NCBI GenBank assembly: GCA_041483535.1
Contig: JBGPFV010000001.1
Location: 1 to 32,502 of the forward strand
Length of the DNA stretch: 32,502 nt
Origin: Terriglobia bacterium
GTDB taxonomy: Bacteria; Acidobacteriota; Terriglobia; Terriglobales; Acidobacteriaceae
Direction of reading: 5' to 3'
Shown here: piece after piece, positions 228 through 30,497 of the stretch
How the letters are laid out: every line of letters begins with the position of its first letter
Numbering within the stretch: the first letter of the stretch is position 1
Notes under the pieces: generated by a model
Seen by the model: the letters and a program-made list of their open reading frames with translations, nothing else
What the model was told of the DNA's origin: nothing
The model's database searches: none
Translations under genes and position numbers: made by a program

Positions 228-1610
228 GTGACAGACATGAGGCAAACGAGAATTGTGTTGCTGGGAATTCTGCTGGCCGTTCCAGGGTATGGACAGGATC
301 AGCCGCAAACCGCGGCTTCTTCCAAAGTCTACGGACAAGTCCAAGCGCCAGCAGCAACCGCGGACACCAATGCCACGCAAGCGCCACTGGTCCTCACGCT
401 GCAGGATGCCCTTACACGCGCCAAAGCTAACGATCCGCAGTTCAGGGCGGCTCTGACGGAACTAGGGCTGGCTCATCAGGACACCGTGCAAAGCCGCGCT
501 CAACTGCTTCCCAACGTCAACTACAACATGCAGTTCCTCTACACGCAGGGGAACGGTTCTCCTTCCGGACGCTATACGGCCAATAACGGCGTTCACGAGT
601 ACCTAGCGCAGGGAAACGTTCACCAGGCGCTTTCGCCGGGGATGTTAGCGGACTATCGACGCGTCGAAGCCGCCGAGGCTCTGTCGCGGGCCAAGTCGGA
701 GATTGCGACGCGCGGTCTGGTCGTCACCGTGGTGCAGGCTTACTACGGATACGTCGTGGCCGAGCGCAAGTATGCCACCGCCCAGAAGGCGGCTTCGGAA
801 GCGGACCACTTTCTCGGCCTCAGCCAAAAGCTGCAGAACGGCGGCGAGGTCGCGGGTTCCGACGTGATCAAAGCTCAGATTCAGGATCAGCAGCAACAGC
901 GCGCACTGCAGGATGCTCTTCTGGCGATGAACAAGACTCGCCTCGATCTTGCCGTGTTGCTGTTCCCGAATTTCGACCAGAATTTCTCGGTCGTAGATGA
1001 CTTGCGCCTGCCCGACCCGTTGCCCCCTTTCGTCGAAGTGCAGGCGGCTGCAACCAAGAGTAATCCGGAACTTCGGGCTGCGCTTGCCTCTCTGCGGCAA
1101 TCCGACCAGGAAGTGAAAGTCGCGTGGGCGGCCATGCTGCCATCGGTCGGCCTGGATTATTTCTATGGCATCGACGCCAATCAGTTCGCGGTGAACGGTC
1201 CGGCTCCGGACCGGTTTCGCAACTTGGGATACTCGGCCACCGCTACACTACAGTTGCCTATATGGAACTGGGGGGCGGGTTACAGCAAGGTGAAGCAGGC
1301 GGATTTGAGGCGGCGGCAGGCCCATGTCGAGTTGAGCTTCGCGCAACGCCGGCTGCTGGCCGATCTGCGGTCGTTCTATGACGAAACCGAGACCTCGCGC
1401 GCGCAGCTCGAATCGCTAGGTCAAACCGCGGAACTTGCTTCCGACAGTTCACGTTTAACTACTTTGCGCTACCAGGCGGGAGAGGCCACGGTGCTGGAAG
1501 TGGTGGACGCTCAAAATACCCTGACGCTGGCTCGCAATGCGTATGATGATGGTCAGGTTCGTTTCCAGGTCGCCCTCGCGAACCTGCAAACCCTGACCGG
1601 GAGCTTCTAA
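228..1610 (+). CDS. TolC-family outer membrane efflux protein
   Basis: 460-aa ORF with a signal-like N-terminus (RIVLLGILLAVPGYGQ). The opening LTLQDALTRAKANDPQFRAA and two coiled-coil repeats are typical of OEP/TolC. It is the first gene of an OMF-MFP-RND operon. An alternative start is ATG 237. Confidence 0.85.
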   Translation: MTDMRQTRIVLLGILLAVPGYGQDQPQTAASSKVYGQVQAPAATADTNATQAPLVLTLQDALTRAKANDPQFRAALTELGLAHQDTVQSRAQLLPNVNYNMQFLYTQGNGSPSGRYTANNGVHEYLAQGNVHQALSPGMLADYRRVEAAEALSRAKSEIATRGLVVTVVQAYYGYVVAERKYATAQKAASEADHFLGLSQKLQNGGEVAGSDVIKAQIQDQQQQRALQDALLAMNKTRLDLAVLLFPNFDQNFSVVDDLRLPDPLPPFVEVQAAATKSNPELRAALASLRQSDQEVKVAWAAMLPSVGLDYFYGIDANQFAVNGPAPDRFRNLGYSATATLQLPIWNWGAGYSKVKQADLRRRQAHVELSFAQRRLLADLRSFYDETETSRAQLESLGQTAELASDSSRLTTLRYQAGEATVLEVVDAQNTLTLARNAYDDGQVRFQVALANLQTLTGSF

Positions 1611-1613
1611 AGC

Positions 1614-3053
1614 GTGTTTCACATATCGATTTGTGGGGAAGGAGGCCGCACCCTTCAGGGGCTATGGCGGGACCAGAGTTGCTGTGGCCACAGGCAGCAG
1701 CCGAGCTGCGCTCGCCTTGGACGGGCGAGGGCGCCCGTCCCCACACTAGCGCTGGCCTCAATCATTCCTGTTCTTGTGCTGGCGCTGGGCTGCTCCGCGG
1801 GCAAGCAGCCGGAGCCGACGGTCGCGGTTCAGGTGGTTCCGGTCAAGAAGGCGACCATCGAGCAGACGGTGACCTCCGAAGCCATTTTGTTTCCACTGGC
1901 CCAGTCGGCGATTGTTCCGAAGATCAGCGCGCCGGTCAAAGCGTTCTACGTGAATCGCGGCAGCAAGGTTCATGAAGGACAGTTGCTGGCCAAATTGGAA
2001 AGCCGCGACTTGGCTGCCGCTGCCGAGGACAACCAGGGAGCCTACGATCAAGCGCAGGCCGCCTACGCGATCGCCACCGCGTCTACTTTGCCGGAAGAGA
2101 TTCAGAAAGCGCAGGGCGATACTAGGGCGGCGAAGCTGGCTCTGGAGGCCGAACAGAAGCTCTACGACAGTCGTCAAGATCTTTACAAGCAAGGCGCCCT
2201 GCCTCGCAAAGAGCTCGATCAAGCTACCGTCAGTCTCGCGCAGGCACGAACTCAATACGAAATTGCGCAGCACCACCTCGATGCTTTGATGGCGGGAGGC
2301 AAGCAGGAGGAAATCAAGTCTGCCAAGGGACAATTGCAATCGGCCAAAGGCAAGTATCTCGGCGCCGCGGCGCAGTTGAACTACTCGGAAATCCGCAGTC
2401 CCATCAACGGCGTGGTTACCGACCGTCCCTTGTACCCGGGAGAAATGGCTGCTGCGGGAACGCCCCTGCTCACTGTCATGGACACCGGCACGGTGGTGGC
2501 GCGTGCCCACATTCCGCAAGAGCAGGCCGCGTTGCTGAAGGTGGGCGACAAGGCCACGGTCCTTGTTGCTGGCGGTCCAGGCGAAGATGACGCGATCGAA
2601 GGAAAGGTGACCGTCGTCAGCCCGGCGCTTGATCCCAACAGCACGACGGTTGAAGTCTGGGTCCAGGCCAGGAATCCGAAGGAACGATTGCGACCGGGAA
2701 CGAGCGTGCGGATTTCCATGCTGGCGCGCTCGGTGCCGAACGCGGTGGTCATTCCCGCGGCAGCGGTGCTCACCGCTCCGGACGGAACGAGCTATGTGAT
2801 GGTCGTTGTTCCCGAAAATCGGGGCTCCGACAATCGTGCCCACCAGAAGACGGTGAAGACCGGAATCCGGCAGGGCGATCAAGTGCAGATTCTTGATGGC
2901 CTCATGGAAGGCGATCGCGTCGTCGCATCCGGCGCCTATGGCCTGCCCGACAATACCAAGATTCGCGTCGAAGCCGCCACCGAGTCTGACAAGACGGATC
3001 ACCCATCGGACAGGCCATCTGCGGGAAAAGAGACAGAAAAGGATGCCCAGTAG
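1614..3053 (+). CDS. Efflux RND periplasmic adaptor (MFP/HlyD family) lipoprotein
   Basis: 479-aa ORF starting 4 nt after the TolC stop. It has a lipobox (LVLALGCSAGK), a long alpha-hairpin (QAQAAYAIA...LEAEQKLYD...) and a beta-barrel region (YSEIRSPINGVVTDR). The start is uncertain, but no other in-frame ATG/GTG/TTG precedes the lipobox. Confidence 0.85.
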   Translation: MFHISICGEGGRTLQGLWRDQSCCGHRQQPSCARLGRARAPVPTLALASIIPVLVLALGCSAGKQPEPTVAVQVVPVKKATIEQTVTSEAILFPLAQSAIVPKISAPVKAFYVNRGSKVHEGQLLAKLESRDLAAAAEDNQGAYDQAQAAYAIATASTLPEEIQKAQGDTRAAKLALEAEQKLYDSRQDLYKQGALPRKELDQATVSLAQARTQYEIAQHHLDALMAGGKQEEIKSAKGQLQSAKGKYLGAAAQLNYSEIRSPINGVVTDRPLYPGEMAAAGTPLLTVMDTGTVVARAHIPQEQAALLKVGDKATVLVAGGPGEDDAIEGKVTVVSPALDPNSTTVEVWVQARNPKERLRPGTSVRISMLARSVPNAVVIPAAAVLTAPDGTSYVMVVVPENRGSDNRAHQKTVKTGIRQGDQVQILDGLMEGDRVVASGAYGLPDNTKIRVEAATESDKTDHPSDRPSAGKETEKDAQ

Positions 3054-6000
3054 CGCGATGACCGCGACCCAAGGTGAATCCCCTTACTGGTTTGCGCGCC
3101 ACTCCCGCTCCATCCTCGTCTTAATCATCACGCTGGCGCTGGTTGGCATCTACGTCGCGTTCACCATTCCGGTTTCCGTTTTTCCGGACACGAATTTTCC
3201 GCGCATTCTGATTGCTGTCGACAACGGCGTGATGCCCATCGACCAGATGATGGTCACGGTCACGCGCCCGCTCGAAGAAGCAGTCAACAGCGTGCCGGGT
3301 CTGCGGCAGGTCCGCTCCATTACCAGCCGCGGATCGGCCGAAATCGACCTGTTCTTCGACTGGAACGTCGACATGTTCCAGACCTTGCAGTACGTGAACG
3401 CGTTGCTATCCAACGCACAACGCGACCTGCCGGCGAGCGCGAAGGTGGAAGCGCATCGCATGACCTTCGCCAGCTTTCCGATTCTCGGCTATAGCCTGAC
3501 TTCGGACACAGTTCCGCAGACCCAGCTCTGGGAACTTGCCACTTACGAGCTCAAGCCCCGGCTGAACCGCCTGGATGGCGTGGCCCGCGTGATTGTGCAA
3601 GGCGGCCAGGAGCCGGAGTTTCACATCGTGCCCGATCCCGCCAAGCTTTTGCAGGCGAGTGTTACGGTTACCGACCTGCTCGATGCGGTGCGGCGCACCA
3701 ACCTGATTGACTCTCCCGGCCTGCTCGAGCGTAACCACCAGCTCTACCTTGGGCTGATTAGCGGACAGGTGCACGATCCGCAACAGATTGCGGCGACCGT
3801 CGTCAAGACAACCGCCGCCGGTGTGCCGGTGCGGGTGGGCGACGTCGCGAAAGTGGAGGCGGCAGTTCGTCCTCTCTATACCATTGTTTCGGCGAACGGA
3901 AAGCCGGCGGTCCTTTTGAGCATCAACCGCCAGCCGGAAAGCAACACCGTGCAGGTGGCGGAAGAGGCGCACGCGGAAGTCGTGAGCATCCGCAAATCGC
4001 TGCCGCCCGGGGTGGAGATTCATCCTTTTTACGATCAGTCGGAGATCGTTCGGCAATCGATTGCCAGTGTCCGCGACGCCATTCTCATCGGCTTAATCCT
4101 GGCGTCGATTATTCTCGTGATTTTTCTGCGCGACTGGGGCACTTCCATCGTGGCTGGCCTGGTGATCCCGGTAACCATCGCGGTGACGTTCATCGCCCTT
4201 AAGTGGATGGGCGAGAGTTTTAACCTGATGACGCTCGGCGGGCTGGCTGCGGCGGTTGGCCTGGTGATCGATGACGCGATCGTGGTGGTGGAGAACATCG
4301 TGCTGCATCGCGACGCGGGCCAGACGCGGCTGCAGGCCATCCACAGCGCGCTGGGCGAGATCACCATCCCGCTGATCGGCTCGACCATCACCCCGATTGT
4401 TGTGTTCCTTCCGCTTGTGTCCATCACCGGCGTAACCGGCACGTTCTTCCGCGCCCTCGCCGTCACCATGTCGGTCTCGCTGCTCACGTCGCTGGCGCTC
4501 GCGCTCAGTTGGACGCCGGCGCTCAGCCAGTTTCTGATCAAGCGATCCACCGGCGATTCGTCCGACATCCCGGACGGCATCGCGGAGAATGATGAAGACG
4601 CTCTCGACCAGATCGCTCCTGAGCCAGAGGTCGAGTCGATCCGGCGTCTGATGGAAGTGGAAGAAGCTTCACTCAGCGGCTTTTTCCGGAAGGTGATTGC
4701 CTTCCACGAGCGCTGGTTGCGCCGGGCGCTGGAGCGCCCACGCTGGCTGGCCGGCTTCAGCCTGGTTCTGATCGTCATTGCTTTCGTGTGCTACCAGTTC
4801 TCCGGCTCCGACCTGCTGCCGGAGATGGACGAAGGCGGTTTCATTATCGACTACATCATGCCCGCGGGCAGTTCCTTGGCGGAGACCAATCGCGTGATCC
4901 GCCATCTCGAACAAATCCTGCACGGTACTCCCGAGGTCGAGTACACCTCGCGGCGCACGGGCATGCAACTGGGCCTGGCGTCGGTGACCGAGGCCAACAC
5001 GGGCGACATTTCGGTGAAACTCAAGGCCTCCCGCAGCCGCGATATCGAGGACATCATCGCCGAGGTTCGCGCGAAAATCAGGACAGAAGAACCGGCCATT
5101 GACGTGGAATTCGTCCAGGTTCTCCAGGACATGATTAACGATCTGACGGGAGAACCGCAGCCGGTTGAGATCAAGTTGTTTTCGCAGGATGCTTCCGTCA
5201 TCGAGGACTGGGCGCCGAAGGTAGCGGATGCGATCGCCAAAGACAAAGGCGTGGTCGATGTCTTGAACGGAATCGATAACACCATCAGCGGTCCGGCAGT
5301 GATGTTTCAGGTCGACCCCGCCATCGCGGCACGGGCCGGGTTCACTCCCGAAGAAGTTGCGACCGACGCGACTGCCATTCTGGAAGGCGAGCCGTCGACG
5401 ACTCCCGTAGTCACTCATGATCGCACGTACACCGTGCGCGTGCGCTTTCCGGCGGGGAATCGAGCTTCACTCGAGGCCATGCGCGACACGCTGCTGGTCA
5501 GTTCGACGGGCAAAACGGCGACGCTCGGATCGCTGGCCACGCTGACCGAGATTCCCGGACAGACGGAAATCCGGCGCGAGAACCTGCTGCGGAATGTGGT
5601 GGTCTCGGCGCGACTGGAGGGCGTCGACCTGGGCACGGGTGTTGCCAGCGTCAAGAAGAGCGTGGAGCAGTTGCATCTGCCTTCTTCGATTCGGGTGGTA
5701 TACGGCGGAACCTACCAGACGCAACAAAAATCATTCCGCGATCTCATCTTCGTGCTCATCCTGGCGGTGGTGCTCGTCTTCATCGTATTGCTGTTTGAGT
5801 TCCGGACCTTTGCCGCGCCCCTCGCGATTCTTTCGTCGGCCCTGCTTTCGACCTGCGGAGTGTTTCTGGCCCTGTTCATCACCCGCACCACGTTCAACAT
5901 CTCGTCGTTCATGGGGATGATCATGGTGATTGGCATCGTGGCCAAGAACGGTATTCTGCTGCTCGATGCCGAGCAAAAATTCCGCGCCGCCGGACTCTCG

Positions 6001-6237
6001 CTGGAAGAAGCGGTCATTCAAGCAGGGCGCCGCAGGTTGCGGCCGATCGTCATGACCGCGCTCGCCGCGGTAGCGGGAATGCTGCCTCTTGCATTCGCCA
6101 TGGGCGCAGGATCGCAGATGTTGAAGCCTCTAGCGATTGCCGTGATTGGCGGCGTGCTCCTTTCCATGGTTCTGTCGCTGATCATCACTCCCGCGGTCCA
6201 CCTGTTCGCCACCCGGCGCGCGCTGCGAAGTTCCTAG
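3043..6237 (+). CDS. RND efflux permease (AcrB/HAE1-like inner membrane transporter)
   Basis: About 1064 aa. The N-terminus RHSRSILVLIITLALVGIYVAFTIPVSVFPD is typical of RND pumps. The TM4 motif GLVIDDAIVVVENIV is of the HAE1 type. Two large periplasmic loops and 12 hydrophobic segments are present. I place the start at ATG 3043, overlapping the MFP stop by 11 nt, rather than at ORF-track 2893. Confidence 0.9.
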   Translation: MPSSAMTATQGESPYWFARHSRSILVLIITLALVGIYVAFTIPVSVFPDTNFPRILIAVDNGVMPIDQMMVTVTRPLEEAVNSVPGLRQVRSITSRGSAEIDLFFDWNVDMFQTLQYVNALLSNAQRDLPASAKVEAHRMTFASFPILGYSLTSDTVPQTQLWELATYELKPRLNRLDGVARVIVQGGQEPEFHIVPDPAKLLQASVTVTDLLDAVRRTNLIDSPGLLERNHQLYLGLISGQVHDPQQIAATVVKTTAAGVPVRVGDVAKVEAAVRPLYTIVSANGKPAVLLSINRQPESNTVQVAEEAHAEVVSIRKSLPPGVEIHPFYDQSEIVRQSIASVRDAILIGLILASIILVIFLRDWGTSIVAGLVIPVTIAVTFIALKWMGESFNLMTLGGLAAAVGLVIDDAIVVVENIVLHRDAGQTRLQAIHSALGEITIPLIGSTITPIVVFLPLVSITGVTGTFFRALAVTMSVSLLTSLALALSWTPALSQFLIKRSTGDSSDIPDGIAENDEDALDQIAPEPEVESIRRLMEVEEASLSGFFRKVIAFHERWLRRALERPRWLAGFSLVLIVIAFVCYQFSGSDLLPEMDEGGFIIDYIMPAGSSLAETNRVIRHLEQILHGTPEVEYTSRRTGMQLGLASVTEANTGDISVKLKASRSRDIEDIIAEVRAKIRTEEPAIDVEFVQVLQDMINDLTGEPQPVEIKLFSQDASVIEDWAPKVADAIAKDKGVVDVLNGIDNTISGPAVMFQVDPAIAARAGFTPEEVATDATAILEGEPSTTPVVTHDRTYTVRVRFPAGNRASLEAMRDTLLVSSTGKTATLGSLATLTEIPGQTEIRRENLLRNVVVSARLEGVDLGTGVASVKKSVEQLHLPSSIRVVYGGTYQTQQKSFRDLIFVLILAVVLVFIVLLFEFRTFAAPLAILSSALLSTCGVFLALFITRTTFNISSFMGMIMVIGIVAKNGILLLDAEQKFRAAGLSLEEAVIQAGRRRLRPIVMTALAAVAGMLPLAFAMGAGSQMLKPLAIAVIGGVLLSMVLSLIITPAVHLFATRRALRSS

Positions 6238-6279: not shown

Positions 6280-6852
6280 ATGACGACGAAGAAGAACGCA
6301 GTCTGCAGCACGGCGCTCAGGGAAAAGGCGCAGTTAATGTCGGGTTCGGAGATTGAACGGACGCTGGTGCGTTTGGCTCACGAAATCCTGGAAAAAAACG
6401 GTGGCGTTGACGGCTTAGGACTGGTCGGAATCCGCCGTCGCGGAGTGCCCATCGCCGAGCGCCTGGGCAAAATAATTCAGCGGGTGGAAAAGAAGAAAAT
6501 GTCCGTGGGCGCGCTCGATATCACGTTCTATCGCGATGACCTTTCGACCCTGGGACCGAAGCCCATCGTGCAGGAAGCGGAAATCGGCTTTTCCATCGAC
6601 GGCAAGAGGATCGTGCTGGTCGACGACGTGCTTTATACCGGCCGCACCACGCGCGCCGCCCTCGACGCCCTTTTTTCGCATGGCCGCCCGAGCCATGTGC
6701 AGTTGCTGGTGCTGATCGATCGCGGCCATCGCGAATTGCCGGTCGAGGCCACCTTCATTGGCCGAACTGTGCAGACTGCCGACAATGAAGTGATCGAAGT
6801 CAAGTTGACCGAGATCGATGAAGCGGAGAAAGTTCTGCTGATGGAGAGGTGA
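6280..6852 (+). CDS. pyrR: Bifunctional pyrimidine operon regulator / uracil phosphoribosyltransferase PyrR
   Basis: LSGSEIERTLVRLAHEILEKN...GIRRRGVPIAERL, the PRPP-binding motif IVLVDDVLYTGRTTRAA, and LVLIDRGHRELPV. An alternative start is ATG 6337. Confidence 0.9.
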   Translation: MTTKKNAVCSTALREKAQLMSGSEIERTLVRLAHEILEKNGGVDGLGLVGIRRRGVPIAERLGKIIQRVEKKKMSVGALDITFYRDDLSTLGPKPIVQEAEIGFSIDGKRIVLVDDVLYTGRTTRAALDALFSHGRPSHVQLLVLIDRGHRELPVEATFIGRTVQTADNEVIEVKLTEIDEAEKVLLMER

Positions 6853-6876: not shown

Positions 6877-6958
6877 TTGTCATCCTGAGCGAAGCGAAGG
6901 ACCCGCTTTCCTGGCACTGCGCGAGACAGCAGGTCCTTCGCTTCGCTCAGGATGACAA
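6877..6958. repeat. Perfect 26-bp inverted repeat (TTGTCATCCTGAGCGAAGCGAAGGAC / GTCCTTCGCTTCGCTCAGGATGACAA) with a 30-nt loop; REP-like element or bidirectional terminator
   Basis: Left arm 6877-6902 and right arm 6933-6958 are exact reverse complements. The element sits between the convergent pyrR and rbsK stops. Its translation gives the spurious ORF 6849..7115 (VILSEAKDP.../LRFAQDDN). Confidence 0.85.
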
Positions 6959-7011: not shown

Positions 7012-7947
7012 CTAGACCTTGCCTCTTTCGCTCCACTCTGCGTCGAAGCGCGCCCGTGCATAGAAAGACTTCTGCGTTCCGACTCCCGTGGTTGACAGGC
7101 CAGCGTAAAGGTTAGCCCGCCTAACCGCTTCCCGCTCCGGCAGGCCCTCGCCAAGGAAGGCCGCAAAGCTGCCAATAAAAGCGTCACCGGCGCCGGTGCT
7201 GTCCACGCTCTTCACCTTAAACGCGGGCACGTGCTCCATGCCTTCGCTTCCGGCAAGCAGCGAACCATTCGCACCCAGAGTAATAATCACGCGCCGAATA
7301 CCGCCGGCAAGAAGTTTTCCCGCGCAGCGTCTGGCGTCATCCAGATTGTGCACTGAGATGCCGGAAATCGCCTCCGCTTCACTCTCGTTGGGAACAAAGT
7401 AATCAAGATCCGCTACGGCTTTGAGGTCGATGGGTTGCGCGGGAGCCGGATTCAAGATGCAGCGGATGCCGTTTTGCCGCGCAAACTTGATGGTGTAGTA
7501 CACGGTCTCCAGCGGGATCTCAAACTGGAGAACGATGCAGTCGGCGCTCTTCAGCATGTCCGCGGCAGCATCCACGTCGGCCGGTTTCAATTCGTCGTTC
7601 GCGCCTTTGACGACGATGATTCGATTCTGTCCGGAAGGATCGACGAAGATCGGCGCCACTCCGCTGGAGACACCGCTTACCTGGCGCACGTACGTGGCAT
7701 CGATCCCAAGTTTTTCAAAGTTCTTGATGGTCGACGGACCGAACAGATCGTCCCCAACTCGCGCCACCATGAAGACGTCGGCTCCGCAGAGGCGGGCGGC
7801 AACGGCCTGATTCGCGCCTTTGCCGCCGAATCCAAGATCGAATTTCTGGCCGAAGATGGTTTCCCCTGGCTTGGGAAACTGGTCGGAGAACGTGGTCAGA
7901 TCAACATTGGCGCTACCCACAACCGCGATGCGAGGACGCTTTGCCAT
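7012..7947 (-). CDS. rbsK: Ribokinase
   Basis: 311 aa. IAVVGSANVDL, GFGGKGANQAVAAARL-type motif, NESEAE, and the anion hole TGAGDAFIGSFAAFL of PfkB-family ribokinases. Confidence 0.9.
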   Translation of the reverse strand: MAKRPRIAVVGSANVDLTTFSDQFPKPGETIFGQKFDLGFGGKGANQAVAARLCGADVFMVARVGDDLFGPSTIKNFEKLGIDATYVRQVSGVSSGVAPIFVDPSGQNRIIVVKGANDELKPADVDAAADMLKSADCIVLQFEIPLETVYYTIKFARQNGIRCILNPAPAQPIDLKAVADLDYFVPNESEAEAISGISVHNLDDARRCAGKLLAGGIRRVIITLGANGSLLAGSEGMEHVPAFKVKSVDSTGAGDAFIGSFAAFLGEGLPEREAVRRANLYAGLSTTGVGTQKSFYARARFDAEWSERGKV

Positions 7948-7999: not shown

Positions 8000-8344
8000 C
8001 TATTTCTCATTCCCATTGCTTATCGATTTTAGGTGGCGGACCAGCTTGTCTTGGTCCCCAGTGGACATGCCCACAAATTCGATGCCGTTTCCAAACTGGG
8101 GATGCTGTGTTCTCACTACGCCCTCCGCCGTCACCTTCTCATCTCCCAGCCACAGCACGATAGCAAGTTTGCTTCCGACCTCGAGGGTCATACTCATTTC
8201 TACGTAGCATCCGGTCGCGCAGATATCCGAGGTTTCGACACGGAGCGGAGCCGTCGAACCCTCCGGCCTTAGCTCAAGCTGGAGCGCGGTTTTCGTGCGC
8301 GGGTACCTTCTCCGCTCCAACTGGGAGGATTGCGGGTCATCCAT
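8000..8344 (-). CDS. PilZ domain protein (putative c-di-GMP receptor)
   Basis: RRRYPR (RxxxR) followed by a D-I-C-A-T-G variant of DxSxxG, in a ~110-aa beta-barrel-like sequence. ATG 8344 is preceded by a strong SD (AAGGAAGGAA). I regard the ORF-track extension to 8569 as non-coding. Confidence 0.7.
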   Translation of the reverse strand: MDDPQSSQLERRRYPRTKTALQLELRPEGSTAPLRVETSDICATGCYVEMSMTLEVGSKLAIVLWLGDEKVTAEGVVRTQHPQFGNGIEFVGMSTGDQDKLVRHLKSISNGNEK

Positions 8345-8610
8345 GATTCCTTCCTTCCTCTTCCACATCCCACGGTCGGGCGCCGCATGATGGAATTTGA
8401 TAGGGGCCGAGTTTCGTGCCTGAGGTCCAGCGCCATGGGTGAGCGCCATTATAGCCTTAAGGATTCGCAGCCCTTTAGAGAAACCTGAAACCGGCGGCAC
8501 AAAGAGCATCCCCCACACTGTCCACAACAGAAATGTCCCAAGGTTACAACTTGGAGAAGTCGGGATCATTCATCTGGCATCCGCACGCGCTCTTGAGTAT
8601 TCTCTTGGGG

Positions 8611-9852
8611 ATGGCCACTGTTTCGTTGAGCGAACTGTTGGGCTCGACCGTGTATGACACCTCCGGGGCGGCTAGCGGCCGGGTGCGTGAGGTGGCCCTC
8701 GCCCCGCAGGAAGACCGCTCTCGCGTGGCCCTGCTGATCGTCAAAACGCCTGTGGGAAACCGCTTGTTGCCCTTGACGGCTGTTTCTGCGATCAATGGCG
8801 GCATTCGGGCCTCCACTGCGGCTGCGGAATGGGCCTCGGCCGACGGCTCCGAAGGACTGTTGCTGCTCAGCCGGGATCTGCTGGATCAGCAGGTGATTGA
8901 CGTCCACGGCCGCAAAGTTGTGCGCGTGAACGACGTGGATTTTCACCACGACAGCGCGCAGAATCGCTCGGTCTTGAGAGTTGGCGGCGTGGACGTGGGC
9001 GCGCGGGGCGCCGTTCGCCGCCTCCTGAAAGGTGTGGTTCCAGCGGCCGTCCTTCGGGCCCTCCTACTGCGGGTCCCTCCCCGCCAGATTCCCTGGGACT
9101 TCGTGGACCTCATCGAGACCGATCCGGCGCGGCGCGTCAAGCTGAAGATTTCGCATGAGCGGCTGGGCAAACTCCATCCCGCCGACATTGCCGACATTGT
9201 GGAAGATCTGTCTCCCGATGAGCGCGAAGCGGTCTTCGAGACCCTCGACGAGGGCGTCGCCGCCGGCGCGCTGGAAGAGCTCGAACCCAAAGTGCAGAAA
9301 TCAGTCTTGGAATCGCTCGATTCCGACCGGGCCGCCGACATAGTCGAAGAGATGGAGCCGGACGCGGCGGCCGACCTTTTAGGTGACCTCTCCGATGAGC
9401 GGAGTGAGGAAATCCTGGTGCAGATGCAGCCCGAGGAGCGCCAGGAAGTCACCGACCTGCTCGAGTTCAAAGAGAATACAGCCGCCGGCCGCATGACCAC
9501 CGAATACATTGCACTGCCCGTGACCGCCACCGCCAACCACGCGATCGAGGCCATGCGCACTTTCGAGGGCCGCATGGAAAACATGAGCACCATCTACCTT
9601 ACGGATACTCACGGGACGCTGGCGGGCGCGGTGCCACTGGTGAAGATCGTTCTGGCGCCTTCCTCAACGCTGCTGCTGGCTTTGTCTCAGGAGCCCCTCA
9701 TTTCCTGTCACGAAAACGCGAAAGAGAAGGAATTCGCCGAGCTCTTCGACAAGTACAACCTGCTGACCTTGCCGGTGATCGACGAACACAATCACCTGAC
9801 CGGCGTGATCACGCCCGATGACGTGATCGCCATGTTGCGCGCCAAGTTGTAG
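8611..9852 (+). CDS. Soluble MgtE-like protein: PRC-barrel + MgtE N-domain + CBS pair, with no transmembrane domain
   Basis: N-terminus LSELLGSTVYDTSGAASGRVREVAL... resembles a PRC barrel. The acidic helical repeats LHPADIADIVEDLSPDEREAVFETLD...AADIVEEMEPDAAADLLGDLSDERSEEILVQM are typical of MgtE_N. Two CBS motifs follow (TTEYIALPVTATANHAIEAM... and LPVIDEHNHLTGVITPDDVIAML). The ORF ends right after the CBS pair, so the 5-TM MgtE pore is absent. An alternative start is 8533. Confidence 0.8.
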   Translation: MATVSLSELLGSTVYDTSGAASGRVREVALAPQEDRSRVALLIVKTPVGNRLLPLTAVSAINGGIRASTAAAEWASADGSEGLLLLSRDLLDQQVIDVHGRKVVRVNDVDFHHDSAQNRSVLRVGGVDVGARGAVRRLLKGVVPAAVLRALLLRVPPRQIPWDFVDLIETDPARRVKLKISHERLGKLHPADIADIVEDLSPDEREAVFETLDEGVAAGALEELEPKVQKSVLESLDSDRAADIVEEMEPDAAADLLGDLSDERSEEILVQMQPEERQEVTDLLEFKENTAAGRMTTEYIALPVTATANHAIEAMRTFEGRMENMSTIYLTDTHGTLAGAVPLVKIVLAPSSTLLLALSQEPLISCHENAKEKEFAELFDKYNLLTLPVIDEHNHLTGVITPDDVIAMLRAKL

Positions 9853-9870
9853 GCATGTCGTTTTCCGGTA

Positions 9871-9933
9871 GAGACGGGGCTTGCCCCGTCTCACCTGCGC
9901 GGCAGGAGGCGCAGCAAGGCCCGGCTCTACGAG
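9871..9933. repeat. Bipartite palindromic REP-like element: perfect hairpin GAGACGGGGCTTGCCCCGTCTC plus a degenerate second unit
   Basis: 9871-9892 is a perfect 22-nt palindrome. 9901-9933 (GGCAGGAGGCGCAGCAAGGCCCGGCTCTACGAG) is a decayed copy of the unit seen intact at 25359-25382 and 29132-29153. Confidence 0.8.
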
Positions 9934-10030
9934 AAAAGTTGCTCGGTTTTGCAGATTCGCCTATCCAGATAACACTTTCAGCATTTATTCTGATCGTTCG
10001 GTTTTGCCAATTTGACCGTTCCCGTGGTCC

Positions 10031-11296
10031 GTGCGCATGAAATTCCTGAGAAGTTGGAAGTTCCGGATCCTGCTCTTTTTCGCCGTCGTAGGACCGGGCT
10101 TCATCACCGCGAATGTTGACAACGATGCCAACGGCATCTTGACGTATTCGCAGGCCGGGGCGCAGTTCGGCTACCTGCTCTTGTGGACGATGATCCCGAC
10201 TACGATCGCGCTGATCGTAGTGCAGGAAATGTGCGCCCGCATGGGAGCGGTCACGGGCAAGGGCCTGAGCGATCTGATCCGGGAAGAATACGGCCTGCGC
10301 ATCACGTTCCTCATGATGCTCGGCATTCTGATTACAAATTTCGGAAACGTCGTGGGCGAGTTTGTCGGCATTGCGGGAAGCATGGAGCTGTTCGGGGTCT
10401 CCAGATACTACTCGGTGCCGATTTGTGCGGTGATCGTTTGGTTGATTGCGGTCAAAGGGCAATACAAGAGCGTGGAGAAGGTCTTCCTGGCAGCCTCGTT
10501 TTTCTATATCACTTACATATTCGCCGGTGTTCTGGCCAAGCCCGCGTGGATTGAGGCGGTTAAGGCCACGATGAAGCCTCCCGGGATGGCGGCCTTCAAG
10601 CACGGACCGTATCTCTACATGGTCATTGGCGTTGTCGGAACTACGATCGCGCCCTGGATGCAGTTCTATTTGCAGTCGTCGATTGTGGAGAAAGGGGTCA
10701 CGCGGCGGCAGTACAAAACCTCGCGGCTCGACGTGATTGTGGGCTGTATCTTCACCGATGTGGTTGCCTGGTTCATCATCGTGGCCTGCGCGGCCACGCT
10801 CTACCTGCATGGGAATCGCGACATTCGCGACGCTGCCGACGCTGCCCAGTCGCTGCGTCCGCTGGCGGGCGACTGGGCGTACATCCTGTTTGCCCTAGGG
10901 CTTTTCAATGCGTCGCTGTTCGCGGCTTCGATTCTGCCGCTTTCGACGGCCTATACGGTCTGTGAAGGATTAGGTTTCGAGTCGGGAGTCGAACGCAAAT
11001 TTTCTGAAGCTCCCGCCTTTTACTGGCTCTATACCGCGCTCATTGTTGCCGGAGCGGCCGTGGTCCTGATCCCCAGGCTTCCGTATATAAAGATCGCGGT
11101 ATTTTCACAGGTGGTCAACGGCGCAGTCTTGCCCTTCGTATTGATCTTCATGTTGCTGCTCATCAACAAGAAGGAACTCATGGGCGAATACGCGAATAAA
11201 CCCATGTTCAACTTCATCGCCTGGGCCACCACCGTGATTATGATTGGGCTCACGGTGGTGTACGTGTACGGGCAGGTGCGTGGCGGAGCCGGGTAG
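10031..11296 (+). CDS. Nramp/SLC11-family transporter with NRMT-type (Nramp-related Mg2+ transporter) binding-site residues
   Basis: 421 aa with about 11 hydrophobic segments. TM1 is GPGFITANVDNDANGILTYSQAGAQFGY, where D-A-N-G replaces the canonical D-P-G-N. TM6 is GTTIAPWMQFYLQSS, which replaces G-A-x-x-M-P-H-N. An alternative start is ATG 10037. Confidence 0.8.
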   Translation: MRMKFLRSWKFRILLFFAVVGPGFITANVDNDANGILTYSQAGAQFGYLLLWTMIPTTIALIVVQEMCARMGAVTGKGLSDLIREEYGLRITFLMMLGILITNFGNVVGEFVGIAGSMELFGVSRYYSVPICAVIVWLIAVKGQYKSVEKVFLAASFFYITYIFAGVLAKPAWIEAVKATMKPPGMAAFKHGPYLYMVIGVVGTTIAPWMQFYLQSSIVEKGVTRRQYKTSRLDVIVGCIFTDVVAWFIIVACAATLYLHGNRDIRDAADAAQSLRPLAGDWAYILFALGLFNASLFAASILPLSTAYTVCEGLGFESGVERKFSEAPAFYWLYTALIVAGAAVVLIPRLPYIKIAVFSQVVNGAVLPFVLIFMLLLINKKELMGEYANKPMFNFIAWATTVIMIGLTVVYVYGQVRGGAG

Positions 11297-11404: not shown

Positions 11405-11797
11405 TCAAAGGATTTTTCCTGCCGCCAGATCCTTTACCAGACCCAGGTCGGCTTCGAGGAAGTCCAGGCCCAGCAGTTCCTGCCGCGTCGCCCAGCGTAT
11501 TTCGCGAAAAATCCGGTTCTCAACTTCACCCTGGTAATTACGCACTTCGAAGAACCGGAGTTCCACGGACCCGCCGCCCGGGTATTCATGGAGGATGCGG
11601 GCGACCTCCGTGCCTACCTCCGCTACGATTCCCAGTTCTTCCTCCAACTCCCGGCGCATGGCATCGCGAGGCTGCTCACCTTCTTCGATCTTGCCTCCGG
11701 GAAACTCCCATTTGAGCGGCATAGGCTGGTGCCGCGTCCTCTGGCAGGCGAGGATGAGGTCATCTTTCAGAATCAGTGCGGCTACGACTCGTTTCAT
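11405..11797 (-). CDS. NUDIX hydrolase, MutT-like (8-oxo-dGTP diphosphatase family)
   Basis: 130 aa with a complete Nudix box: GGKIEEGEQPRDAMRRELEEELGI. Confidence 0.85.
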   Translation of the reverse strand: MKRVVAALILKDDLILACQRTRHQPMPLKWEFPGGKIEEGEQPRDAMRRELEEELGIVAEVGTEVARILHEYPGGGSVELRFFEVRNYQGEVENRIFREIRWATRQELLGLDFLEADLGLVKDLAAGKIL

Positions 11798-11816
11798 GGA
11801 CGAAAAAGCGCTTCTG

Positions 11817-11891
11817 GCTGCTAGCTTCTGGCTTCTAGCAAACAGTCTTTCGCGGAAGATTGCCAGCAGCTAGTAGCCAGGAGCTAGCAGC
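11817..11891. repeat. Imperfect inverted repeat / hairpin (GCTGCTAGCTTCTGGCTTCTAGC ... GCTAGTAGCCAGGAGCTAGCAGC)
   Basis: Arms 11817-11839 and 11869-11891 pair at 21 of 23 positions. The hairpin lies directly 3' of the GAF gene stop on the minus strand and is plausibly its terminator. Confidence 0.6.
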
Positions 11892-11905
11892 GGGCACAGT
11901 TCGGT

Positions 11906-12394
11906 TCAGGCACTTTCCAGCCGCTTCCCAACCAACTGCGCGCAATATTCGACGAGTTCGCGGTCCTCGACCGTGAATGCTGCCGGGAAATGACTGTCAA
12001 TATCGAGTTCGCCGCGAACCTGGCCGCGCACAAAGACGGGAACCACGATCTCGGACTTCGTTTCGAGCGAGCAGGCAAGATAGCGTGAATCACTGTTTAC
12101 GTCATCCACCACCACGGTCTTGCCCGATGATGCCGCCGCACCGCAGATACCCTGGTTCAGAGGAATGCGCGTGTGCGGAGTCATCGCTCCCCGATAGTGT
12201 CCCAATACCAGCATGGGCGGATTGGCTCCGGGTTCGAGCATGTAGAAGCCCACCCAGTTGTACTTCAGCATGTGTTGGTTCAGCAGAAGCGTGATGTCTT
12301 TCATCAATTGGTCCGCCGTGCGCGTTTCCGAATTCGAGCGGTCCACTTCTTTGCGCACTTCTTCGATGCCGTGAGGACTTGAACTGGTGGCCAT
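11906..12394 (-). CDS. GAF domain protein, free methionine-(R)-sulfoxide reductase (fRMsr/YebR)-like
   Basis: 162 aa. WVGFYMLE..., GICGAAASSGKTVVVDDV...YLACSLETKSEIVVPV resembles the YebR/fRMsr motif pattern (GxCG ... H/Y-x-AC ... SEIV(V/L)P). Confidence 0.75.
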   Translation of the reverse strand: MATSSSPHGIEEVRKEVDRSNSETRTADQLMKDITLLLNQHMLKYNWVGFYMLEPGANPPMLVLGHYRGAMTPHTRIPLNQGICGAAASSGKTVVVDDVNSDSRYLACSLETKSEIVVPVFVRGQVRGELDIDSHFPAAFTVEDRELVEYCAQLVGKRLESA

Positions 12395-12404
12395 AATGTT
12401 AATC

Positions 12405-13253
12405 CTAAACCATGCGGGCGCGGTTTATCTTCGCGGGTGGAAGAGAACGGAGTCCGGGCTGGGGGCCGAATACGGCAGGATGAATTGCACCGGCCAGGGC
12501 GCGCAATCCCGAAACTAGCGTAGGAGCGGGAGTGTTCAAAAGTTCATCGGAGATGCAATAGACCTGCGAATTCCGCACCGCCGTTGTATTCGACCAGCCT
12601 CTCTCCGCGGCGATCTTCGCCAGCGGCACGCGGTCGCCAGCACCGCACCAGGCAGCGATGATGACCTCCGGGTCCAGTCGAGCGATCTCTCCGGCGGAAC
12701 ACTGGGCCCCCGGCTTGCCCAGAAAGTCGCCACCCGCCGCCTCCACCAGTTCGGCTACCCAAGGCTGCGATGCAATGACGGGCTTGCCCCACTCCTCCGA
12801 GAACACGCGTTTTCTGGGAAGGCCAGCGGTCTGGCATCGCATGTCGTCGATAGCTGCTTGCATATCGGAAATCGCCTTCGCACCGCGCTCGCCAGCGCCG
12901 ACGCAGCCCGAGATCAACGCGATGTCGGAGTAGATGTCGTCGAGCGTGCGCGGAGCCAGGCCAAGAAAGCGAATGCCCGCCTTAAGGATTTCCACCACCG
13001 CAGTTTCCTGGTAAGGAACGGCCGCGATCACAAGGTCGGGCGCGGCGGCAAGAATCTCGCTGGCCTTCGAGTTCCAGGAGTCGGCAACGATCAATCGGTT
13101 GCCGCCTCGCGCCGCTGTTCGCAGCTCCGGAACCACATCCGCGCAATACTTTGTGCAGGCGACAACGCGATTTAGTTCGCCCACGCTGGCGAGAATCACG
13201 GTCGCGCTCGGTTGCAGGCAAGCAATGTGGCGAGGTGTGCGCAAGGCGGGCAT
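12405..13253 (-). CDS. Periplasmic-binding-protein type 2 (BtuF/FhuD-like) domain protein without a signal peptide
   Basis: 282 aa. IACLQPSATVILASVGE...PDLVIAAVPYQ...DPEVIIAAWCG is the cluster A-II SBP pattern. Only 8 residues precede the first beta-strand, and the ORF cannot extend further upstream. Confidence 0.65.
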   Translation of the reverse strand: MPALRTPRHIACLQPSATVILASVGELNRVVACTKYCADVVPELRTAARGGNRLIVADSWNSKASEILAAAPDLVIAAVPYQETAVVEILKAGIRFLGLAPRTLDDIYSDIALISGCVGAGERGAKAISDMQAAIDDMRCQTAGLPRKRVFSEEWGKPVIASQPWVAELVEAAGGDFLGKPGAQCSAGEIARLDPEVIIAAWCGAGDRVPLAKIAAERGWSNTTAVRNSQVYCISDELLNTPAPTLVSGLRALAGAIHPAVFGPQPGLRSLPPAKINRARMV

Positions 13254-18351: not shown

Positions 18352-18728
18352 CTACTATAGAGATTCATCAAATGGCGGTTCCGACGAAAACTTTTCCCGC
18401 AGAACCGACCGCGGTTCCCCGAGGCTGTAAGGTCCGGAGCATTGCGGTTCCGGCCGCCTACCGCCGACTCTTCGTCTGGTCCTAGATCGTCGTCGCATTT
18501 CTGTTTCTGGAGTTTGCACTCTGGGAGCCGCGGCTGGAGAGGAGGAACCGCTGGGTGGGAGTGGCGGCGATCACGATTCTGGTGCTGGCGCTGATGGACC
18601 GCGCATCGCTGGAGCGGCTCGGCCTGCGATTGCCGAAGACGTTCGGCAGGAGGGTGGTGCTGGGGATTAGTTTTGCAACGGCCGCGGTTCTGGTAGTCAG
18701 GGTGCTGGGATCGGGTATCTGCGATATT

Positions 18729-18836
18729 GATCGGGTCATCGGGTGATCGGGCCATCTAAAGTCAACAGCATCGCTCCGATCTAGCGATGCGGGCGTTTTC
18801 AGATCACCCGATGACCCAATGACCCGATCACCCGAT
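18729..18836. repeat. Heptad-type GATCGGG/TCATCGGG inverted repeat element enclosing a small hairpin
   Basis: 16-bp perfect inverted repeat GGGTCATCGGGTGATC (18733-18748) / GATCACCCGATGACCC (18802-18817). An inner 8-bp stem GCATCGCT-N7-AGCGATGC lies at 18768-18790. The right arm continues as tandem GACCCGAT/CACCCGAT units to 18836. Confidence 0.8.
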
Positions 18837-23692: not shown

Positions 23693-25327
23693 ATGAAGGC
23701 GCAGTGTTTGCCGTTCCAGCAGATTCCGCACAGCACACCTCTCTTCCTCGACTATCTTTCCTACACTCCTTCGGTTCGCGATTTTTATCCCCGTTCACCG
23801 ATTGTTTCCGAGTGGGTCAAAGACGAATCGCAGCGGGTTGTTTACGACGCAGCGCGCCGCAGCAGGGTGAGCGCCATTCTTGAGCGGCAGAATCGCGCGT
23901 GGGGCGCTTCTCCAAAGACGCTGGCCAATATTGAACGGCTCAAGCGAGGAGCCCTGGCGGCGGTTACGGGACAGCAGGTTGGTCTTTTCGGCGGGCCGCT
24001 GTTTTCGATTTTCAAAGCATTGACGGCGGTCAAACTGGCGGAGCAGGCGACGGCGACGGGAGTGGAATGCGTCCCGATCTTCTGGCTGGCGACCGAAGAT
24101 CACGATTTGGCAGAGGTCAACCATGTGGCGCTGCTCTCCGAGCAGGGCCTTCCGGAACCATTCGCGGCGGAAAGCCGGGCATTTGAAAGCAACGCCGTGG
24201 ACGATGCGCCCGTGGGAACCGTCAAGTTCGGGCCGGAGATTGAGCCGGTGGTCGAGCGCGCCGCTGCACTGTTGGGAGATTCCGAGGTCACGACGTGGCT
24301 TCGCCAGGCGTATCGTCCGGGAGAAACGCTGGGTAGTGCGTTTGCCCTGCTGTTTGCACGCCTGTTTGCGGATTGGGGAGTCATCCTGCTGGATCCGGCG
24401 GACAAAGGTTTTCACGATCTCGCAAAACCACTGTTCCGCGCGGCGATCGAACGGGCTTCCGAACTTGATGAAGCACTGCTGGCGCGCGGCAAAGCGCTGG
24501 AGGCGGCGGGATATCACCAGCAGGTGAAAGTGACCTCGGCGACCACGCTGCTTTTTGAAGTGAAGAATGGTGCGCGCACCGTGGTGCGGCGCAGGAATAA
24601 TGGCGGCAATGGCAGTGAGTACGCCGTCGGTGAGGAGCGGATCTCTCAGGGAGAGCTGCTCGATCGGATTGAACAGGCTCCGGAGAAGTTCAACCCGAAT
24701 GTGTTGCTTCGTCCCGTGGTACAGGATTACCTGCTGCCGACGCTCGTTTATACCGGCGGAGCGGCCGAAGTCGCGTACTTCGCGCAGGTGGCCGTAGTCT
24801 ACGAGAAACTGCTGGGACGAGTGACACCGATTCTGCCGCGGTTTTCGGCAACGTTGGTCGAAGCCAAGCCACAGCGCATTCTGACCCGCTACGAACTGGG
24901 ACTACCCGATTTATTCCAAGGCCCGGAAAAAGTTCGCGAAGCAATTGCGGCTCGTTCGCTGCCACCGGATTTGCAGGAGCGCTTTGCGGAAGCCTACTCG
25001 AGTGTGGAGCGATCGATGACGGCGGTTCGTGAGTCGGTGGGCAAGCTGGATTCAACGCTGATCGATACCGCTGAAGGCACCCAGGCCAGCATGCGGCATC
25101 AAATCGACCGTCTGCAGGCGCGGGTATCACGGGCGGAGGGGCTACGGAATGATGTCATCACGCGGCACGCGGATGCCTTGAGCCACGCGCTATTTCCGCA
25201 CAAGGCCCTCCAGGAACGCGAGGTTGCAGGAGTCAGCTTTGTGGCGCGCTATGGGCCGGAACTGCTCGCGAAGCTCTATCAGACGATCCATCCCGATTGC
25301 CCCGATCACCAGCTAATTGCGCTGTAG
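23693..25327 (+). CDS. bshC: Bacillithiol biosynthesis cysteine-adding enzyme BshC
   Basis: About 544 aa from ATG 23693, preceded by GGGAGAG. TPLFLDYL..., VTGQQVGLFGGPLFSIFKALTAVKLAEQ, NVLLRPVVQDYLLPTLVYTGGAAEVAYFAQ, and a C-terminal coiled coil are characteristic of BshC. Confidence 0.85.
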   Translation: MKAQCLPFQQIPHSTPLFLDYLSYTPSVRDFYPRSPIVSEWVKDESQRVVYDAARRSRVSAILERQNRAWGASPKTLANIERLKRGALAAVTGQQVGLFGGPLFSIFKALTAVKLAEQATATGVECVPIFWLATEDHDLAEVNHVALLSEQGLPEPFAAESRAFESNAVDDAPVGTVKFGPEIEPVVERAAALLGDSEVTTWLRQAYRPGETLGSAFALLFARLFADWGVILLDPADKGFHDLAKPLFRAAIERASELDEALLARGKALEAAGYHQQVKVTSATTLLFEVKNGARTVVRRRNNGGNGSEYAVGEERISQGELLDRIEQAPEKFNPNVLLRPVVQDYLLPTLVYTGGAAEVAYFAQVAVVYEKLLGRVTPILPRFSATLVEAKPQRILTRYELGLPDLFQGPEKVREAIAARSLPPDLQERFAEAYSSVERSMTAVRESVGKLDSTLIDTAEGTQASMRHQIDRLQARVSRAEGLRNDVITRHADALSHALFPHKALQEREVAGVSFVARYGPELLAKLYQTIHPDCPDHQLIAL

Positions 25328-25385
25328 AGACGGGGCTTGCCCCGTCTCCCGCTGCGAAAGAGACGCGGCAAGCCGCGTCTCTACG
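25325..25385. repeat. Bipartite palindromic REP-like element (two perfect 22-24 nt hairpins in tandem)
   Basis: TAGAGACGGGGCTTGCCCCGTCTC (25325-25348, overlapping the bshC stop) and AGAGACGCGGCAAGCCGCGTCTCT (25359-25382). It lies between the convergent bshC and HAD genes. It belongs to the same family as 9871-9933 and 29132-29153. Confidence 0.85.

Positions 25386-29114: not shown

Positions 29115-30497
<1,383 letters not shown>

Follow-up and report, generated by a model that had tools for sequence, protein, structure and literature searches.

Genes for Nramp-related Mg2+ transporters (NRMT, or NrmT) have been reported to follow, in most cases, a gene for a homologue of the MgtE cytoplasmic domain, an arrangement described under the name "mgtE-nramp operons" by Shin et al. 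(2014, PLoS Genet; PMC4072509; Discussion, Figs S5 and S6). In that paper the MgtE-like fragment is speculated to serve cytoplasmic feedback regulation or to act as a metal chaperone; an M-box precedes the mgtE-nramp pair in a subset of loci and is not obligatory, and the pair tested by experiment, Acp2976/Acp2977 of Acidobacterium capsulatum, is one without M-box. NRMTs are defined by two motifs, DxxG instead of the DxxN of classical Nramps in helix 1 and TxxA/T instead of their A/CxxM in helix 6, and the Eggerthella lenta protein EleNRMT carries Mg2+ and Mn2+, not Ca2+, without H+ coupling (PMC8806188). The recent reviews of Mg2+ transport that were checked do not mention NRMT. The present analysis deals with a pair of this kind found in a stretch of 32,502 nt from a Terriglobia bacterium (contig JBGPFV010000001.1), called "the window" below and always meaning the whole stretch. 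In it a gene for a MgtE cytoplasmic homologue (8611-9852, the sensor gene) lies directly 5' of an NRMT gene (10031-11296, the transporter gene), both on the + strand.

The two genes represent the published mgtE-nramp pair in its Terriglobales form. Those close relatives of the sensor that carry a name are Terriglobales, the order to which A. capsulatum is also assigned; the window thus adds a further instance of the described pair, within the lineage where the pair was tested. An earlier, sequence-only reading of the window had proposed that a pore-less MgtE sensor is paired here with an unrelated Mg2+ carrier, and had known of no characterised example of such a pairing. The latter point is not supported, since a pairing of this type was both described and tested in 2014. 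The locus does not represent a new kind of system; the surveys reported below add a quantified asymmetry in the linkage of the two genes, a head of two beta domains in the sensor, and fusions of the sensor module to MgtA and MgtE. As for function, the sensor could be a trans-acting, cytoplasmic, cation-sensing inhibitor of the H+-uncoupled carrier, an interpretation which we regard as evenly balanced between right and wrong.

The carrier and its pore-less partner

The transporter gene, which encodes 421 aa when read from the GTG at 10031, belongs to the NRMT clade of the SLC11/Nramp family by its fold, by both defining motifs and by its closeness to NRMT over MntH. The Pfam Nramp model PF01566 matches aa 37-390 with E 1.9e-101. 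The best solved relative is EleNRMT (7QIA), with E 1.7e-107, 363 bits and 47% identity (alignment A2), while MntH structures give 100 bits or less, with E from 1e-27 to 1e-12; the NCBIfam MntH model NF001923 reaches 155 bits, below its cut-off of 430. In the alignments, the helix-1 motif reads D32-A-N-G35 (10124-10135, +), where EleNRMT has D-A-G-G and DraNramp D-P-G-N, and the helix-6 motif reads T204-T-I-A207 (10640-10651, +), followed by P-W, where DraNramp has A-T-V-M-P-H. The string GTTIAPW is identical in the transporter and EleNRMT, and the equivalent of EleNRMT Q379 is conserved. Both motifs and the NRMT type had been recognized by the sequence-only reading, and the binding site differs from that of MntH; two details required correction. 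D-A-N-G is rare, being found in 4 of 131 relatives, most of which have D-A-G-G, and the probable start is the ATG at 10037 rather than the GTG at 10031, since this GTG is replaced by GTA in the related locus L161. By homology to EleNRMT, the transporter should import hydrated Mg2+ plus Mn2+, driven by the membrane potential and without H+ coupling.

The sensor gene lies in a frame open from 8533, or from 8611, to 9852 (+). Over 8000 homologues were found, and the close ones are overwhelmingly 413 aa long, for which reason translation probably starts with the ATG at 8611, giving a product of 413 aa; residues are numbered from it. A PRC-barrel domain occupies aa 3-66 (8617-8808; PF05239, 34 bits against a gathering cut-off of 21.2; strands at aa 2-67 in the structural model), followed by a second beta-rich domain (aa 86-161, 8866-9093), by a helical MgtE_N domain (aa 188-289, 9172-9477; PF03448, E 1.2e-27), strongly acidic with 33 D+E per 105 residues, and by a CBS pair (aa 291-412, 9481-9846), supported by Pfam (aa 360-409, E 9.5e-11), by structure alignment and by the model. 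An AlphaFold2 (AF2) model built from 34 diverse homologues reached a predicted local distance difference test score of 90.2 and showed the same order, with beta structure at aa 1-67 and 86-161, a disordered linker at aa 171-179, the helical N domain at aa 182-284 and the CBS pair at aa 291-412. Searches of solved structures returned MgtE cytoplasmic domains at E about 1e-25, and in Foldseek comparisons the C-terminal 230 residues matched best the MgtE cytosolic domains 2oux, 2yvy, 8gpv and 8gps (E about 1e-19). The assignment of PRC, MgtE_N and CBS domains by the earlier reading is thus confirmed by Pfam, NCBIfam and structure matches.

The second beta domain is visible in the AF2 secondary structure and in the invariant columns of alignment A1, and is the most conserved part of the sensor family, with the invariant residues D92, D97, R105, D108 and R136 concentrated in it. 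Its match to the PRC model is sub-threshold (E 0.08), and BLASTP detected no internal repeat within the sensor; tandem PRC barrels are, on these results, not demonstrable.

The pore is missing altogether. The NCBIfam mgtE model TIGR00400 scores 145 bits on the sensor, against a cut-off of 233, and aligns over positions 23-252 of its 450, which correspond to the cytoplasmic part only. No match to the MgtE transmembrane pore PF01769 was obtained in the Pfam search of the sensor, and no membrane segment was found in it, as had been claimed before: the sole hydrophobic stretch, at aa 337-359, sits within the CBS pair. A frameshifted MgtE membrane domain, the finding which the sequence-only reading had named as fatal to its proposal, was sought by tblastn with pore domains; all matches in the whole window had E > 0.5, and in the 178-bp spacer between the two genes no pore remnant occurs in any of three frames. 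On these searches, the idea of an MgtE remnant was rejected.

It could still be supposed that the sensor gene is a decaying MgtE remnant, given that MgtE_N and CBS domains are present and the pore is not, and that relatives with one to five C-terminal membrane segments (see below) could be evolutionary intermediates. To this we give almost no credence: the frame is intact, the more than 8000 homologues are mostly of one length, 699 clusters are found at E < 1e-30, key residues are invariant, and the window holds no residue of a pore. The conservation data refute a pseudogene. An origin of the sensor from a PRC-bearing MgtE is possible, and the earlier wording that the sensor was "detached from its own pore" is plausible as a statement on its ancestry drawn from sequence.

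The Thermus thermophilus MgtE (TtMgtE) ligands (PMC5882242) were mapped onto the sensor by means of the structure-search alignment, and their conservation was evaluated in the family alignment of 34 sequences. The Mg4 ligands D91 and D247 correspond to D251 (9361-9363) and D404 (9820-9822), each an aspartate in 31 of 34 sequences, and the Mg6 ligand D95 corresponds to D255 (9373-9375), an aspartate in all 34. At the remaining positions the Mg7 ligand E59 is replaced by G219 (D or E in 30/34 relatives), and the Mg5 ligands D226 and D250 by N383 (N in 22/34) and A407 (D or E in 20/34). Sites Mg2 and Mg3 require the plug helix and the membrane domain, both absent from the sensor; the plug helix is taken to be largely missing because the protein stops about 9 residues past D404. 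The TtMgtE residues which bind ATP, Y170, R187, D188, N203 and F227 (PMC5529423), align with T, V, K, Q and L and are not conserved, within an alignment of CBS1 that is possibly imprecise.

Linkage and other settings of the sensor module

The unit formed by the PRC, beta, MgtE_N and CBS domains is called "the module" below. Its linkage to NRMT genes was evaluated from both sides. In the survey led by the module, one genome per species was used and 594 relatives were collected; loci were taken from the best 80 of these 594, nearly all from Acidobacteriota. An NRMT gene lies immediately 3' on the same strand, with gaps between -3 and 710 bp, at 45 loci, and 1.2-3.9 kb away at 8; 21 loci have no Nramp gene within 3-6 kb, and 6 have too little flank to be judged. 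An NRMT gene is thus present within 4 kb in 53 of 74 acidobacterial loci and absent in 21; the smallest distances between the two genes are 13 bp, or an overlap of 3 bp. The module genes standing alone form several small clades scattered across the tree.

In the survey led by the transporter, metagenomes were scanned with EleNRMT, and NRMT loci were counted when their upstream sequence extended over 1.5 kb or more. A module gene was found directly 5' on the same strand in 71 of 72 such loci, with gaps of 42-802 bp and from varied metagenomes, and loci 97% identical to EleNRMT also have a module gene directly upstream. The adjacency of module and NRMT, whose conservation across genomes the sequence-only reading had made a test of its proposal, is very strongly conserved. 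The linkage is asymmetric, since the transporter almost never occurs without the module, while modules without a neighbouring NRMT gene do occur.

Among 1.84 billion cluster representatives searched, 699 module clusters were identified at E < 1e-30, mostly of 410-440 aa, and the module was also seen in other protein contexts. It is fused at full length to MgtE pores in P0159 and P0173. In seven clusters of 1265-1318 aa (P0262 and P0271-P0276) it forms the N-terminus of a Mg2+ P-type ATPase of MgtA type, for which TIGR01524 gives 1120 bits against a cut-off of 611; six of these are 57-60% identical to the seventh, P0262, used as query, and one of the fusions is encoded 3' of zip and mgtC genes, in the row zip-mgtC-fusion (loci L085/L086, 5001-8948).

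The partners of gut, Eggerthella-like NRMTs differ from the soil forms, which lack hydrophobic segments, in having one to five of them at the C-terminus. Products of about 450 aa with a single segment are encoded 5' of the gut NRMT genes at L088 (3542-4894), L090 and L093, and products of 612-628 aa with four or five segments at L099, L101 (3100-4938) and L113 (3031-4896). These membrane segments place the module at the membrane. The extensions with four or five segments were considered as homologues of the MgtE pore and discarded, as no similarity was detectable (hhalign probability 0.8%).

Three further apparent fusions, P0298 (module::Nramp; L081, 1601-4504), P0299 (module::half AcrB) and P0317 (half MatE::module), were rejected as natural, Rosetta-stone fusions. 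They are chimeric gene calls in public metagenome assemblies and probable products of misassembly or frameshift, because one nearly identical module is shared by all three, the junctions are Arg/His-rich and look out of frame, a transposase is found on the P0298 contig, and the same gene, a module with membrane segments, occupies its normal place 5' of NRMT at L101. In the literature searched, no mention was found of a PRC barrel together with MgtE or of module-MgtA fusions, nor any discussion of the linkage asymmetry, of the two-beta-domain head, or of MgtA and MgtE fusions.

Proposed role of the sensor

MgtE and CorA carry metal-sensing cytoplasmic domains of their own. EleNRMT, like NRMTs in general, has no such domain, and a carrier which is uncoupled and driven by the inside-negative potential needs a brake. 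In the proposed scheme the sensor would act in trans as a regulatory subunit of NRMT. At high cytoplasmic divalent cation a metal ion would bridge the acidic clamp between N domain and CBS pair (D251 and D255 with D404); the closed sensor would then dock on the carrier from the cytoplasmic side, perhaps by way of its beta domains, and block uptake. Negative feedback, which MgtE and CorA channels hold within their own chains, would in this way be given to the uncoupled carrier. Metal sensing by the sensor, its contact with the carrier, the direction of the regulation, and which of Mg2+ and Mn2+ is the physiological ion are all points that we infer. An inhibitor acting in trans is the role best supported, because the partner is near-obligatory, the acidic N/CBS clamp is kept, variants anchored in the membrane occur, the module is also found on two other Mg2+ importers, and an M-box is occasionally present.

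The region between the genes bears on their joint expression. Right after the sensor stop codon, the spacer contains a GC-rich palindrome (9868-9892, +), of which an identical copy is found at 25324-25348, and variants at 25357-25381 and 29132-29157. It belongs to a dispersed, intergenic palindromic repeat (GTAGAGACGGGGCTTGCCCCGTCTC, variant GAGACGCGGCAAGCCGCGTCTC), which appears to be of the repetitive extragenic palindrome (REP) type or terminator-like. This portion of the spacer is not kept in close relatives, and the hairpin, being a dispersed repeat without conservation at the locus, was rejected as a locus-specific attenuator. Over its first 80 nt the spacer varies. The region of about 100 nt 5' of the transporter (9934-10030, +) is conserved in close relatives at a level similar to that of coding sequence, with the motifs CTATCCAGA and GCATTTATTCTGATCG, as determined by blastn and by alignment with L016, L156, L149, L157 and L161; this leader may be a separate promoter or operator of the transporter. 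In its predicted folding the spacer does not stand out (z = -1.8). No Rfam family, M-box included, was found in the window at gathering threshold, nor in 8200-10100 at E <= 10, and a riboswitch was therefore dropped as a candidate here; an M-box is located 5' of the module-NRMT pair in 2 of 36 loci scanned. The presence of both a REP-like hairpin and a conserved leader in the spacer suggests that sensor and transporter may be expressed partly separately in this genome.

Several observations weigh against regulation in trans by Mg2+. In the sole experimental study of a related pair, that of Shin et al. (PMC4072509), Acp2977 expressed in Bacillus subtilis rescued a Mn2+-uptake mutant fully and a Mg2+-uptake mutant partly, and co-expression of Acp2976 gave no better Mg2+ rescue and no measurable effect. 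CabNRMT complements a Mg2+-uptake mutant without its partner (PMC4072509), and purified EleNRMT transports Mg2+ alone (PMC8806188). In the window, the sensor has lost the MgtE ligands E59, D226 and D250, and the plug helix, by which gating is transmitted in MgtE, is essentially missing. It may be that sensor and transporter genes are not strictly co-transcribed in the window. The 21 orphan modules of the 74 adjoin genes for unrelated enzymes (UbiD, amidohydrolase, PALP, NMO, EPSP synthase, DXR), and the only apparent module::Nramp fusion, P0298, looks artefactual. Since Acp2977 behaved mainly as a Mn2+ importer and Acp2976 had no effect, a simple Mg2+ interpretation is weakened for this lineage; the earlier designation "Mg2+ uptake pair" is, from sequence, plausible.

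The intact orphan modules beside UbiD, amidohydrolase, PALP, EPSP synthase and DXR genes would fit a sensor that is an independent CBS-domain regulator, acting on other proteins, or on RNA and translation by way of its PRC barrel, and adjoining NRMT through co-regulation without contact. The lack of effect of Acp2976 on transport in B. subtilis (PMC4072509) and the conserved leader which the transporter has upstream of its own, are consistent with such a role. It is nevertheless unlikely, as across phyla the module stays directly 5' of NRMT in 71 of 72 cases, Mg2+ transporters repeatedly carry it fused in cis, gut lineages have it anchored in the membrane, and the sensor has no DNA-binding domain.

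The near-absence of NRMT genes without a module would also fit a positive factor, i.e. an activator, stabiliser or assembly partner needed for full activity or selectivity of the carrier in its native membrane, and Acp2977 alone gave a weak Mg2+ rescue in the foreign host (PMC4072509). We consider this role clearly improbable: addition of Acp2976 did not improve the rescue, CabNRMT complements and purified EleNRMT transports Mg2+ with no partner (PMC4072509 and PMC8806188), and the homologous domains of MgtE close the pore. The alternative put forward by Shin et al. themselves is a cytoplasmic chaperone or buffer which would receive Mn2+ or Mg2+ from the carrier. The very acidic MgtE_N domain and the activity of Acp2977 as a Mn2+ importer (PMC4072509) agree with it; against it stand the millimolar Mg2+ of the cell, for which a chaperone is not needed, the distribution of the conserved residues, which are grouped in beta domain and N/CBS clamp and do not form a high-affinity site, and the fusion of the module to importers of differing mechanisms. 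This function for the sensor is very doubtful.

With inhibition in trans kept as the preferred role of the sensor, a broader generalization is advanced tentatively, at somewhat under even confidence. The PRC/beta/MgtE_N/CBS unit would be more than what is left of an MgtE: a cytoplasmic governor of Mg2+ import, portable between transporters and joined in evolution to three importers of unrelated mechanism, in cis to MgtE channels and MgtA pumps and in trans, either soluble or membrane-anchored, to NRMT carriers. Docking or signalling would in each case fall to the invariant second beta domain, and NRMT would be one of few bacterial secondary carriers that require a sensor subunit on a separate chain. 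The surveys sharpen the question of how bacteria avoid being overloaded by an uncoupled Mg2+/Mn2+ carrier that is driven by the membrane potential. Should the trans-sensor model be true, one modular sensor has been reused across channel, pump and carrier, and a handle is provided for structural work on the regulation of NRMT.

Surroundings of the pair and comparison with known systems

An RND efflux operon (228-6237), composed of genes for an OEP outer-membrane factor, a membrane fusion protein of the CusB/HlyD type and a pump of the AcrB family, lies upstream of the pair and is not conserved beside it in relatives. Divergent from the sensor gene is a PilZ-domain gene (8000-8569, -), of which no counterpart was detected next to the pair at related loci. 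3' of the transporter gene, NUDIX, GAF and periplasmic-binding-protein genes (11405-13253, -) recur, respectively, at 29, 13 and 18 of the related loci surveyed and form a conserved local synteny. Two inverted repeats were also observed. The first, at 6877-6958, has arms of 34 nt which are 94% complementary (TTGTCATCCTGAGCGAAGCGAAGGACC...) and is located between a phosphoribosyltransferase gene (6280-6852) and a pfkB kinase gene (7012-7947, -); a similar element, CTGAGCGAAG...GAAGG, is found in the spacer of the relative L016. The second, at 18728-18830, has arms of 48 nt, 79% complementary and 7 nt apart, which contain units similar to GATCGGG/CATCGGG.

Among the described systems, Acp2976-Acp2977 is the closest. 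Gene order, strand, the two families, the lack of an M-box and the order Terriglobales are common to both pairs, the likeness being based on the published description. The window sensor carries a PRC barrel and a conserved second beta domain, whereas Shin et al. speak of a fragment of the MgtE cytoplasmic domain and, as far as their text could be read, mention neither of the two. Ca_c0685, the gene for CabNRMT in Clostridium acetobutylicum, has an M-box, unlike the window pair.

EleNRMT of Eggerthella lenta (7QIA; Ramanadane et al. 2022; PMC8806188) falls in the same clade as the window transporter, and the DxxG-TxxA signature and the equivalent of Q379 are shared; the two differ within the helix-1 motif, which is D-A-N-G in the window and D-A-G-G in EleNRMT. 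The partners of EleNRMT-like genes have a C-terminal hydrophobic segment which the window sensor lacks. With the canonical MntH/Nramp transporters of Mn2+/Fe2+ (DraNramp, ScaDMT and EcoDMT) the transporter shares the LeuT-type Nramp fold, PF01566, but the match is far weaker, and its site, D-A-N-G / T-T-I-A-P-W, departs from their DPGN / AxxMPH.

The sensor, finally, is best compared with MgtE of Thermus thermophilus (2YVX, 2ZY9). The N domain and the CBS pair are of the same fold, and the acidic ligands of Mg4 and Mg6 are kept, while those of Mg5 and Mg7 are lost and the residues of the ATP site are not conserved. The window sensor has no pore and almost no plug helix, and has an additional N-terminal region of 185 residues with two beta domains. 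It would act, if at all, on a separate protein.

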